In this document: positions 3,001-6,000 of the stretch, one piece after another | Layout: each line of letters opens with the position of its first letter | Position numbering within the stretch: the stretch's first letter is position 1 | Source of the DNA: Escherichia coli O157:H7 | GTDB taxonomy: Bacteria; Pseudomonadota; Gammaproteobacteria; Enterobacterales; Enterobacteriaceae | Length of the DNA stretch: 64,000 nucleotides | Strand: one strand, 5' to 3' | Assembly: GCF_013167455.1 (NCBI RefSeq) | Contig: NZ_CP038328.1 | Program-made: the position numbers

Positions 3001-6000
3001 GTAACGGGAGCATTTACCCGACGGTGCGGTTCCGGGACCCGAATGAAGTCCGCATTGAAATTAACGGGAATGGTGCGTCCAGACCAGCGGAACGCATTGA
3101 GAAGGTGCGCCCGGACAACCGTTATTTCACGGATGAGAAAAGCGCCATGGGGAGTGATGTTTTCCGTAATGCCGCCGCCACCGGCCTGAAACCGTCCGTA
3201 GTGAAGAAAGGCGAGAATCAGTATGCCGTTGAAATGGATAATCCTGCGTTCTCTGAAGATGTGGCAACGGAAACCATTAACACCCTGGCTGACGGAGAGC
3301 GTATTGCTGATGCTGACCCGATGGAGCAGCCCGCGTTCATGCGTGACCCGCGATTCCGTGGTTTCACGGGGGATGATACGGAGGTACAGGCCCGCCTTGC
3401 CCGTGGCAACGCGCCGACGGCAGAGGAGCTTGTACGTTCACAGATGGCTGAAGGTGATGCCGGTCCGACAGCACAGGAGTTAACTGAGCGTCCACGCCTG
3501 CCCGCTCCCGGCGATATTCATCCCGGACAGGGATATCCGTTACCGGGAGAAGTGGCGCGTACGCCGGATGAAAATCAGGCCGGACGTGGTGGTCGTTTTA
3601 CCACAACCGGTGAGGTTAAGGGCCAGAGTTTCCAGAAAGGACAAGCTCCGGCACCGGAAAACGCCGCTGGTCGCCAGGGGGAAACACTCGAGGGTGACAT
3701 GGTTCGTCGTGGTCTGCCGTCACCGGATGCGCAGAACGCGACAGCACCGGTACGTGAAGGGCTACCGGCTCCTGACATTGCGCGTAATGTTCGTATGCCT
3801 CAGCCTGAATCACTTCCCCGCACTGTACGGGACTCACTGCCTGAGCTTGCACAGCAGGCAGAAGTACGCCGACAGGCCGGAGGAAATCGTGACATCCCGC
3901 AGCCTGAGACAATCGCACCTGAATCTGAAACAACTGTCTCTACTGACAGGGAAGCTACCGTGCGCGGAGGTGAAGTCAGGGGCAAAAAAATTGAAGACTT
4001 TGGTGAAGAAATTAAGGGCGCGGCAAAACACCGTTATGCACAGCTTGCTGAAACACTGGGTAAAACGCTGGAAGACAGGGATTATGCCACGCAGCCGCTG
4101 AGCAAACTGTTCCCGAAACCGGACTACGCAAAACTGGCGAACGAAGGTGCTGATGCTGATACCCTGGCAATGATAGCGCTGTATCGTAGCGATATTCCGG
4201 CGAAGACGAAACACAATACGGCAGGCTGGGGGGAGAGCATAAAAAAAGTACGACACAGTGTATCGGAAATGCTGAACGGAACGGTCAGCGCGAAACGCCT
4301 CGCAGAATGGATGGAAGGCAGAATGCCCTCCCGTTACGCGGATACCTGGCAACTGTTACGCACTCTGCCACCCTCACAGATGGACAGGGCTTCTGCTTAT
4401 CGGGTGGTATCGGGTGTGTATCAGGCGGCAGGAGGGAAGCGTTACGATCCGCCACAGAAACTTTATTCACTGCGCAATAAGGACAATAAGGGGAGTAACC
4501 TCTTTTTCTCGGAAAGCAGGGATGAATTACTGGCAAAGGCGAAAGTCTGGTTTGCAGAGCAGGAGGAAAAATCACAGGCGAAAGGTGATGAAAAAACAGC
4601 ACCGTCACCGGATGACAAAATCCGCTTTGACGTTTACCGGAATACCCGCAGTGGCGATATTTTTATCGCTTACGGTAAAAACAAAATGCGGGTGAGAGGT
4701 GGCTTTAAGTCAGCCAGTGATGCGCGTAAGTACATTGATTCACATCGTGATGAGCTTGTTCGTCATGTGAAGGAGATGCGGGAGATTTCGCGTGAGGAGC
4801 AGCGCAACGCCACCAACCGCGACCGTACCGGACCAGAACGCCGCAAGGGGAATGTTTCACCGGAGCAGTTCAGTGATGCGTTTGGTTTCCGTGGTGTGCA
4901 GTTTGGTAACTACGTGGAAGGTCCGCGTCGTCAGGCTGATTTGAACCGGGCTTATGACTCGCTGCATGACCTTGCGGAAGTACTGAATGTACCGACAAAA
5001 GCGCTTTCCCTGAACGGTCGTCTTGGCCTGGCATTTGGTGCCCGTGGTAAGGGTAAGGCGGCGGCACACTATGAGTCAGGTGAGGTGGCAATCAACCTGA
5101 CAAAAGGTAACGGACCGGGTGCGCTGGCGCACGAATGGTTCCATTCTCTGGATAATTATTTTGGTCGTTATGACGTTTCCAATGACGGGAAAATTACGTC
5201 AGGTGGCGACTTTATGACGGAAGCACAGCGTGTCAGGCGCATATTTAAAGACGGCAGGTATGTTGATGCTGAATATCCGGTACGTCAGGAGGTTTACGAC
5301 GCTTTTAAAGGTGTGATTCAGGCCATTAAAAACAGTGACATGCCGCGTCGTTCAGCGCTTCTCGATAAGGTGCGCTCAAAACCGTACTGGTCAACGGATG
5401 TTGAAATGGCGGCACGTGCCTTTGAGCGTTATGTTCAGGATAAGGCGCGTATGGCTGGCGTGGAGAATGATTATCTGGTCAATATCCGTAAGGCACCTGA
5501 GCACAACACAGATAACACCTACGCTTATCCGACGAATGCGGAACTGGATGGCGGTATTCGTGAGGCATTCGATCACCTGTTCCGCACCCTGAAAACCCGT
5601 GAGACGGACAAGGGCGTTGCGTTTTATTCCCGTAAGGGCGTTACCCGCACACCTGAAGGTAATCTCATTTCGGATGTTAACCGTAGTGCGGAAGCCAAAG
5701 GCAGCCCGGTCCCGCAGGTTGAAGCGGTTGCCCGTGGCGTGATGAGCGGCATTAAGGACAGTGACCTGAAGGTCCGTGTGGTGAAGTCACAGAAAGAGGC
5801 TGAAGCGCTGGCGGGTGAATTGTTCGATGGTTACGGCAGGGTGCACGCATTCTATCGTCCGGATAAACGAGAAATTGTCCTGGTGGCGGATAACATCCCT
5901 GACGGGCGGACCGTTCGCGAGAAGCTGCGTCACGAGATCATTCACCATGCCATGGAGCATGTTGTCACACCAGCGGAATATCAGACGATTATCAAAACCG

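Follow-up and report, generated by a model that had tools for sequence, protein, structure and literature searches.

Two predicted zincin-fold metallopeptidase domains in the giant polyvalent protein of a Stx prophage of Escherichia coli O157:H7

The stretch of DNA analysed here, referred to as the window, comprises 64,000 nucleotides of Escherichia coli O157:H7 contig NZ_CP038328.1 and carries the giant late gene of a Stx prophage at nt 1281-9662 on the plus strand, as are all features described below. The gene encodes 2793 amino acids from the RefSeq start, which is the ATG at nt 1281 with a GGAG ribosome-binding site. The mechanical open reading frame obtained by translation is longer (window 1242-9662, 2806 codons), and a terminator-like hairpin (nt 1244-1269) lies within its first 13 codons. 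Residue numbers in this article are those of the mechanical frame of 2806 amino acids; because RefSeq starts at nt 1281, the RefSeq number of a residue is the number given here minus 13. The gene sits at the end of the prophage, with tail-fibre and tail-tip genes upstream, and is the final prophage gene ahead of yfdC. Scanning the window for tRNAs gave no match. At the DNA level the gene is 99.3% identical to the giant gene of 933W, VT2-Sakai and Stx2 phage I. It belongs to Stx phages of the 933W/VT2-Sakai/phi24B type, in which its equivalents are L0134 of 933W and gp47 of phi24B. Of 5426 complete E. coli genomes, 426 carry it.

Shiga-toxin genes are spread by short-tailed Stx phages, and the largest protein in the virions of these phages is this one, of approximately 300 kDa. 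Existing annotations call it no more than “LPD38/LPD5 domain-containing” or “hypothetical”, “LPD38 domain-containing protein” being the RefSeq name in this genome, and no literature on L0134 of 933W was found. The protein matches PHROG 616 across its full length. Its domains occur in the order LPD5, domain 1 (the C-terminal part of which is Pfam LPD1), domain 2, MuF_C and LPD38. LPD5 (aa 1064-1213, nt 4431-4880, E 1.9e-45) is directly N-terminal to domain 1 and overlaps its start. MuF_C (aa 1763-1852, nt 6528-6797, E 1.1e-17), as defined by Iyer 2017, is a PBECR-type predicted RNase-fold domain and not a metallopeptidase; the assignment of the “metallopeptidase domain” of gp47 to MuF-C in a recent phi24B preprint is corrected by the domains described below. 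LPD38 (aa 2489-2694, nt 8706-9323, E 6.8e-49) is specific to phage-type polyvalent proteins, and its region overlaps a match to the DarB-like PHROG 10089. No polymerase, methylase or helicase domain was found in the giant protein, nor did any part of it resemble a transmembrane segment when scanned for hydropathy (19-residue window, mean >= 1.5). The protein combines several unrelated domains, LPDs among them, is encoded with late and virion genes and is present in the virion, all of which are hallmarks of phage-type polyvalent proteins (Iyer 2017). The original prediction, which drew attention to two HExxH motifs in this protein, had likewise pointed to polyvalent proteins of phages and plasmids as the usual setting of such modules, and the presence of LPD5, LPD1, MuF_C and LPD38 bears this out.

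The first motif, HEWFH, occupies aa 1297-1301 (nt 5130-5144) and the second, HEIIHH, aa 1564-1569 (nt 5931-5948). Translation recovers the sequence contexts originally quoted for them (GPGALAHEWFHSLDNYFG, PRRQADLNRAY and REKLRHEIIHHAMEH), and the spacing, estimated at about 270 residues, measures 267. These are the only HExxH occurrences in the giant protein, where 0.037 would be expected by chance from its His and Glu content. Reading the motifs as zincin metallopeptidase signatures agrees with AF2 models in which both fall within well-predicted zincin-fold domains, with the core elements of that fold: an N-terminal helix, a three-stranded sheet, the active-site helix and further helices. The original prediction named a lack of conservation among homologues as evidence that would speak against it; both motifs proved to be kept in distant homologues, and they are therefore not chance occurrences. 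In profile searches, domain 1 matches CLCA_X at a score below the curated cut-off of that model, and domain 2 has no Pfam or NCBIfam model. Pfam searches with three overlapping thirds of the protein placed no peptidase family over either motif, and searches of PDB-chain sequences with both regions, as single sequences and as profiles, returned chance-level matches only. Both domains are very probably genuine zincin-fold domains of catalytic type.

Domain 1 is a CLCA_X-type zincin-like metallopeptidase domain (aa ~1195-1458, nt 4824-5615). The NCBIfam model CLCA_X matches it at aa 1195-1450 (E 9.3e-44, 243 of 250 model positions) with 149.8 bits; this is below the curated whole-protein cut-off of 260, and for that reason RefSeq does not apply the name. 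The AF2 model (pLDDT 88.8, pTM 0.89) is ordered as three strands, the HExxH helix and a Glu helix, and resembles anthrax lethal factor, MtfA and the Pro-Pro endopeptidases. In strand 2 of the three-stranded sheet, the AAHYE strand (model residues 99-102), lies H1276 (nt 5067-5069), present in 73 of 74 homologues, which is the extra conserved active-site His of the clade described by Iyer 2017. The active-site helix HEWFHSLD (aa 1297-1304, nt 5130-5153, model helix 119-133) contains HExxH and the clade-specific Asp. Among the 74 homologues (38-63% identity), H1297 and H1301 are each kept in 73, and E1298, W1299, D1304, Y1382, E1388 and R1392 in all. The last three belong to a “glutamate helix”, YWSTDVEMAARAFE (aa 1382-1395, nt 5385-5426, model helix 210-228), which ends in the near-invariant E1395 (71/74) and is contained in Pfam LPD1 (aa 1374-1453, nt 5361-5600, E 7.3e-24). 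Judged from sequence, E1388, E1395 and D1304 are candidates for the third zinc ligand. An Asp equivalent to D1304 has been proposed for this role (Lenart 2013, PMC3650047), and analogy with gluzincins would favour E1388 or E1395.

Domain 2 is a second zincin-like metallopeptidase domain, of a minimal gluzincin-like type (aa ~1483-1689, nt 5688-6308), for which an AF2 model with a pLDDT of 86.2 matches minimal zincins. Its motif HEIIH (aa 1564-1568, nt 5931-5945) lies in model helix 76-95. Across 148 homologous stretches and the query, the first His is kept in 147 of 149, and the Glu and the second His in all 149. The additional His 1569 (nt 5946-5948) is not conserved, this position being Y in 66 and H in 49 sequences of the alignment. 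As in domain 1, the search for a third ligand led to a conserved downstream helix bearing Glu: EFLAHMAE (aa 1620-1627, nt 6099-6122, model helix 135-149), for which the family consensus is QAEEVxAxxAE. E1620 is invariant (149/149) and E1627 is kept in 138 of 149, and the former is the candidate third zinc ligand. Domain 2 has 368 representative homologues, mostly within proteins of 1500-6000 amino acids. Conjugative plasmids encode TraC-type primases and zeta-toxin fusions in which Foldseek recognises this fold as well. Among 38 domain-2 homologues searched against Pfam, the best match was Peptidase_M76 at E about 0.1.

The two domains lie mid-protein, approximately 25 residues apart. Profile-profile comparison with hhalign finds no relation between them (probability 0.5%), so they are not duplicates of one another; a tandem duplication was considered and ruled out by this absence of profile-level similarity. 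The suggestion of two peptidase-like modules in one polypeptide is thus upheld as two separate conserved domains. A further suggestion, that one copy is active and the other degenerate, is not, for both retain all conserved catalytic-type residues of their families. The pair recurs as a cassette of domain 1 followed by domain 2 in 29 of the 151 proteins that contain domain 2, the spacer having a median length of 16 amino acids, and degenerate copies are almost absent, even from proteins with two or three copies. Homologues of domain 1 also exist as stand-alone proteins carrying LPD5 and LPD1, located among small early-type genes on phage contigs, and this context argues that domain 1 can work in trans.

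Several known systems resemble these domains. Domain 1 shares the HExxH-plus-Asp signature of CLCA_X (NF041907). Among the members given in Table S2 of the describing paper are residues 1195-1467 of a protein of 2806 amino acids with a 99-100% match to Stx2 phage I, 933W and VT2-Sa (Lenart 2013, PMC3650047). Many CLCA_X members exceed 1000 amino acids and come from phages and plasmids (PMC3650047). The published CLCA_X consensus is HExxHxxxD, whereas domain 1 and all 74 homologues read HExxHxxD, with the Asp three residues after the second His; in Pfam the CLCA_X unit is divided between LPD5 and LPD1, and the HExxH helix itself is not covered by any model. The polyvalent MPTases of Iyer 2017, which include PF18818, ArdC and TraC1 and fall into 12 clades, occur in the same setting: a large multidomain phage protein that also contains LPDs and MuF-C and whose gene neighbours those for the virion (PMC5512222). 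Domain 1 agrees with the clade termed “widely distributed phage-type” by these authors, in which strand 2 ends in a His and an Asp stands three residues beyond HExxH (PMC5512222). More than one MPTase per polypeptide was found in 8% of the MPTase-bearing proteins of that set (PMC5512222). The main text of Iyer 2017 contains neither the Stx-phage protein nor Stx phages (PMC5512222). The ArdC-type Pfam model PF18818 (MPTase-PolyVal) had no match in aa 950-2050 at E<=10 and matched 0 of 38 domain-2 homologues at E<=0.1.

Anthrax lethal factor, the Pro-Pro endopeptidases (M34) and MtfA (M90) are 12-13% identical to domain 1, with no sequence-level relation, and differ from it in the extra conserved H1276, W1299, D1304 and R1392 of domain 1. 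The minimal zincins compared with domain 2 were TTHA0227/DUF1025, acel_2062, the minigluzincins (jannalysin, selecase), SprT/Spartan, Wss1 and IrrE. Domain 2 differs from these in that its C-terminal half is longer and helical and bears the invariant Glu approximately 52 residues downstream of HExxH, in an ExxAxxAE helix; it has no Pfam match to these families and no conserved third His of the SprT type. The modules had also been described as possibly SprT-like, a description that does not hold, as there is no Pfam SprT/WLM match and SprT and Wss1 are only mid-list fold matches. The metzincin signature HExxHxxGxxH was likewise rejected: domain 1 reads HEWFHSLDNYF, and position +10 of domain 2 is not His and is not conserved.

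The N4 virion RNA polymerase and P1 DdrB/DarB are likewise large capsid-packaged MPTase proteins delivered with DNA, and the match of the Stx-phage protein to a DarB-like PHROG falls in its C-terminal part. In phi24B, gp47 is abundant in virions (10,962 spectral matches), and tryptic peptides over both motifs were detected there. By protein counts per gel slice, the gp47 signal is mostly of high molecular weight and peaks in the uppermost slices, at sizes greater than that of the 80-kDa portal, which makes it unlikely that gp47 is extensively processed before packaging or within the virion. P1 DdrB, in contrast, is reportedly processed before packaging (PMC5512222).

These results favour, with some confidence, an interpretation in which each HExxH motif marks the active site of its own intact zincin-fold metallopeptidase domain, the two domains being of different kinds and both lying in a packaged giant polyvalent protein. 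In each domain, the two His and a downstream carboxylate would hold a zinc ion, and the Glu of the motif would activate a water molecule for hydrolysis of a peptide bond. The giant protein would travel together with the phage DNA, and its proteases may come into play while it is being ejected or afterwards, when they would cleave the 300-kDa polyprotein into functional parts, cleave host proteins, or do both. Both domains are predicted to be active peptidases, which is probable rather than assured. The giant protein itself can be put forward only tentatively as the main substrate, and host proteins as the main substrates seem somewhat unlikely. Most likely, as predicted here, the domains serve as zinc endopeptidases that are delivered together with the DNA and process the protein itself and/or cleave host proteins. 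What has been observed is the presence of the motifs, their conservation, the fold class, the domain architecture and the presence of the phi24B homologue in the virion; zinc binding, catalysis, timing and substrates are predictions.

A more far-reaching proposal is that the conserved two-protease cassette, injected with Stx-phage DNA, acts in trans on host proteins, e.g. those of defence or the envelope, and does not only trim itself. This is speculative and on balance improbable, as is its corollary that the stand-alone CLCA_X proteins of other phages' early regions do the same job once expressed, to which similarly little probability is given. If it were true, the range of E. coli strains that a Stx phage can lysogenise would depend in part on these proteases.

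Of the alternatives to active peptidases, the one that survives best is a non-catalytic role in capsid packaging or in scaffolding of the ejected protein, in which the catalytic residues add little to phage fitness. Precedent for this exists in the N4 virion RNA polymerase, whose MPTase-containing region is required for encapsidation and which is packaged unprocessed despite its MPTase domain (PMC5512222), and the high molecular weight of gp47 in virions is in keeping with it. The metalloprotease activity of R388 ArdC, too, is dispensable for the measured antirestriction phenotype. A structural role nevertheless leaves unexplained why exactly the catalytic-type residues are conserved almost absolutely among homologues of 22-60% identity, and it sits poorly with the near absence of degenerate copies noted above; it is regarded as rather improbable. 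ArdC is the sole metalloprotease domain of a polyvalent protein for which a genetic test was found, and its outcome counts against the active-peptidase reading, as do the unprocessed state of the packaged N4 enzyme and the high molecular weight of virion gp47.

Another possibility is that the two domains cleave peptide cross-links in peptidoglycan, allowing the ejected protein to build a channel across the periplasm. This is the role that the phi24B preprint suggests for the “metallopeptidase domain” of gp47, which is proposed there to be an ejection protein that assembles into a conduit through the periplasm. Pfam searches with three overlapping thirds found no lysozyme, transglycosylase or other cell-wall hydrolase domain anywhere in the 2806 amino acids, so an activity that breaches the wall is otherwise missing. 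However, the peptidase of the preprint is MuF-C, in fact the PBECR RNase-fold domain, and the fold matches of the domains identified here are protein-cleaving zincins (lethal factor, PPEP, MtfA, neprilysin, SprT, IrrE), with no M15, M23 or LAS-type wall peptidase in the list of either domain. Their relatives are moreover found in cytoplasmic contexts, domain 1 as the stand-alone early-region phage protein and domain 2 in the plasmid TraC primases and zeta-toxin fusions. Digestion of the wall is accordingly given a low probability.

A zincin-like fold may serve other chemistry, such as that of a YbeY-like metal-dependent RNase or an HExxH-type oxygenase. YbeY and the metzincins have their third His at position +10. 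Neither domain has a conserved His after HExxH, position 1573 in domain 2 homologues being mostly Asn, Gly or Ala; the conserved partner is instead a Glu, carried as in gluzincin peptidases by a helix further along the chain, and peptidases make up the majority of matches in both fold lists, which renders such chemistry very improbable. Although HExxH is short and frequent by chance in many proteins (Lenart 2013, PMC3650047), chance motifs or a decayed duplicate are already refuted by the low expected number, the conservation over hundreds of homologues, the confidently modelled zincin folds around both motifs and the unrelated profiles of the two domains.

Because the kind of domain and the architecture had been described before, the finding is a refinement of annotation. 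Metallopeptidase domains are very common in polyvalent proteins. A tractable phage with two such domains, set beside an ArdC test that showed no catalytic requirement, is therefore a reasonable place to ask what their role is. The two intact protease-type sites are now located at exact residues, E1298 and E1565 (RefSeq E1285 and E1552), which are simple targets for point mutants in phi24B.

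The giant protein is a polyvalent protein whose gene lies with tail genes, and within it are two zincin-fold domains, each combining a conserved HExxH with a carboxylate-bearing helix further downstream. Translation gives a single ORF of 2806 codons on the plus strand (window 1242-9662). Both motifs were confirmed where the original prediction had placed them, HEWFH (nt 5130-5144) at aa 1297-1301 and HEIIHH (nt 5931-5948) at aa 1564-1569, and the predicted spacing of about 270 residues was counted as 267. Pfam domains on the same strand are LPD5 (aa 1064-1213), LPD1 (aa 1374-1453), MuF_C (aa 1763-1852, window 6528-6797, E 1.1e-17) and LPD38 (aa 2489-2694), and none was found in aa 1-1000 (window 1242-4241). 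PHROG 616 covers the protein along its full length, and a DarB-like PHROG shows overlap with its C-terminal third. This is a phage-type polyvalent protein architecture as defined by Iyer (2017, PMC5512222). Conservation, fold models and architecture support the main interpretation originally offered, i.e. zincin-type modules in a polyvalent setting. Elsewhere, the protein has a glycine-zipper-like stretch (aa ~419-446, E 0.4-0.8) and a long acidic, Pro/Gln/Ala-rich low-complexity region (roughly aa 700-1010).

The first HExxH falls between LPD5 and LPD1, and neither Pfam match spans it. The NCBIfam model CLCA_X spans aa 1195-1450 (E 9.3e-44), scoring 149.8 bits against a curated whole-protein cut-off of 260. 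A word-indexed search with domain 1 (aa ~1195-1458) found 221 homologues, many of them stand-alone proteins of ~330 aa with LPD5 and LPD1. Across a 74-sequence alignment (38-63% identity), E1298, W1299, D1304, Y1382, E1388 and R1392 are conserved in 74/74, H1276, H1297 and H1301 in 73/74, and E1395 in 71/74; the lone deviant homologue has both His replaced together. AlphaFold2 predicts aa 1177-1473 with confidence (pLDDT 88.8, pTM 0.89). The model begins with a long helix (RQxxLNxAYDxL, a segment already spotted in the original prediction) and three strands, the second holding H1276, followed by the HEWFHSLD helix and a later helix bearing E1388, R1392 and E1395. Given this last helix, the model indicates that what Pfam calls LPD1 forms the C-terminal portion of the zincin domain, the one with the glutamate helix, and is no separate domain. 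CLCA_X was defined as a zincin family found in phages and plasmids, many of its proteins exceeding 1000 aa, and Table S2 of that study has an entry for a 2806-aa protein (residues 1195-1467) that matches Stx2 phage I, 933W and VT2-Sa (Lenart 2013, PMC3650047); domain 1 of this same protein was already described in 2013. The widely distributed phage-type MPTase clade, marked by a His where strand 2 ends and by an Asp three positions past HExxH (Iyer 2017, PMC5512222), and CLCA_X are evidently the same group. A conserved EDFGxxIxGAxK motif lies just upstream of LPD5 and also opens many stand-alone LPD5-LPD1 proteins. On metagenome contig L002 (8001-9002), a stand-alone LPD5-CLCA_X-LPD1 protein of 333 aa heads a run of ~20 small unannotated genes, running divergently from a block of terminase, portal and protease genes in which the large terminase has LAGLIDADG/Hom_end (intein-like) matches.

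Domain 2 (aa ~1483-1689) yielded close relatives only in a word-indexed search. An exhaustive scan through 1.84 billion cluster representatives returned 368 proteins at E<=1e-3 (93 at E<=1e-10), mostly 1500-6000 aa long. When the query was aligned with 148 homologous stretches (n=149), E1565, H1568 and E1620 were conserved in 149/149, H1564 in 147/149 and E1627 in 138/149, with the family consensus LRHEvLxHxGL ... QAEEVxAxxAE; the second His of HEIIHH, an extra His, is variable in the family (Tyr or His). No Pfam family matched domain 2 or 38 homologues (best Peptidase_M76, E about 0.1), and no NCBIfam model matched domain 2. For aa 1480-1690, the AlphaFold2 model (pLDDT 86.2, pTM 0.74) runs helix, strand, helix, strand, strand, HExxH helix, with E1620 on the third helix thereafter. 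Foldseek against AFDB50 matched other 'large polyvalent protein-associated domain' proteins, TraC-type DNA primases, KfrB-domain proteins, one zeta-toxin family protein and one IrrE-N-like protein. By tblastn, domain 2 is present in 186 Stx and Shigella phages, in 106 Vibrio phages and in zeta-toxin fusions on conjugative plasmids of Pseudomonas, Xanthomonas and Burkholderia. Domain 2 is a member of a known polyvalent-protein zincin class, though one without a Pfam or NCBIfam model, and no prior literature mention of it was found for the Stx-phage protein. It also occurs at 100% identity on three E. coli 'plasmids' of 50-63 kb (NZ_CP044141.1, NZ_CP133131.1, CP043018.1) and at >=99% in a fourth record; as 50-63 kb matches the size of a Stx phage genome, the three may represent phage genomes excised as circles, or else assembly products that were submitted as plasmids.

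Profile-profile comparison found no similarity between the two domains, which belong to different zincin clades and are no duplication. Nor was the option of one active and one degenerate copy supported, since degenerate copies are almost absent in homologues. Domain 2 stands alone in 99/151 domain-2 proteins, is present in two or three copies in 23/151, and lies directly downstream of domain 1 in 29/151 (median spacer 16 residues, ~25 in the window). Many giant homologues, P0131, P0133, P0134, P0135, P0142, P0145 and P0148 among them, have two or three near-identical domain-2 modules in tandem, with HExxH and the invariant Glu kept in every copy. Newly added here are the exact residues of both sites, the recognition of Pfam LPD1 as the glutamate-helix half of the CLCA_X domain, the recurrent domain 1-domain 2 cassette and a correction to the current phi24B annotation. 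These provide useful annotation and a clean experimental handle; they do not constitute a new kind of system.

In domain 1, zinc would be held by both His with E1388, E1395 or D1304, and in domain 2 by both His with E1620; the HExxH Glu would act as general base in each, with peptide bonds as the probable substrate. Polyprotein self-processing or attack on host proteins has been proposed for such MPTases (Iyer 2017, PMC5512222). Stand-alone domain-1 proteins occur among small early-type genes on phage contigs, and together with the domain 2-toxin fusions on plasmids they show that each module can function outside the giant polyprotein, and this speaks for at least some activity in trans. In the one genetic test found for a polyvalent-protein metalloprotease, R388 ArdC, protease activity was not needed for antirestriction.

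The homologue in phage phi24B, gp47, ranks by mass spectrometry among the most abundant proteins of the virion and is invisible in the cryo-EM map; it was proposed to be an ejection protein (phi24B preprint, 2026). The pooled peptide list from phi24B virions includes, over the motifs, GNGPGALAHEWFHSLDNYFGR (7 spectral matches) and HEIIHHAMEHVVTPAEYQTIIK (34, with 31 for its LR-extended form), and further gp47 peptides map to the N-terminal, MuF_C and C-terminal regions. Across the gel slices, gp47 spectral counts peak in the top four (2188, 1686, 1187, 1260) and tail off below. Because these slices lie above the one where the 80-kDa portal peaks, gp47 is packaged largely as a very large species, and any extensive cleavage would therefore occur at or after ejection. 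Digestion of peptidoglycan by these domains, the role suggested by the preprint, is weakly supported: the preprint places the peptidase in the equivalent of aa 1763-1852, named 'Muf-C metallopeptidase domain', whereas MuF-C is a PBECR (barnase/EndoU/colicin-like) predicted RNase fold (Iyer 2017, PMC5512222). A wall-peptidase fold is also absent from the structural matches of both domains, and cytoplasmic contexts are known for both domain types. A purely structural or packaging role has precedents in N4 and ArdC but leaves unexplained why catalytic-type residues are selectively conserved. YbeY-like or oxygenase chemistry is unlikely, as the conserved partner is Glu and not a third His. Chance occurrence is excluded, the giant protein having only these two HExxH where its His (1.35%) and Glu (7.2%) frequencies predict 0.037.

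Along its full length, the giant gene shares 99.3% DNA identity with the giant late gene carried by short-tailed Stx phages, including 933W (L0134), VT2-Sakai, Stx2 converting phage I and vB_EcoS_ST2-8624. Altogether 186 phage records match, and the gene is present in 426/5426 complete E. coli genomes. RefSeq starts the protein at ATG nt 1281, preceded by GGAG and 13 codons downstream of the mechanical ORF start, so that RefSeq residue numbers equal the mechanical-ORF numbers minus 13. Between the two candidate starts, a GC-rich hairpin followed by seven U (nt 1244-1269; fold z-score only -1.9) looks like a terminator. With this hairpin followed by GGAG and the RefSeq ATG, the first 13 codons from ATG 1242 are probably untranslated, and the giant gene may be set apart by an intrinsic terminator from the virion gene that precedes it. 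The window start truncates the upstream ORF (219-1211), leaving the 3' portion of the gene for a 421-aa hypothetical protein (WP_000012450.1). In phi24B the homologue is gp48, labelled 'Transcription factor?', which virions also contain (1634 spectral matches); the 421-aa protein may be a second one that is packaged or ejected. The giant gene is the final prophage gene, with yfdC (minus strand, 9885-10817) within ~220 nt and the prophage-chromosome junction at window 9662-9885. A scan of the whole window found no tRNA gene, and the tRNA of the integration site must therefore lie at the opposite end of the prophage; in K-12, argW adjoins yfdC.
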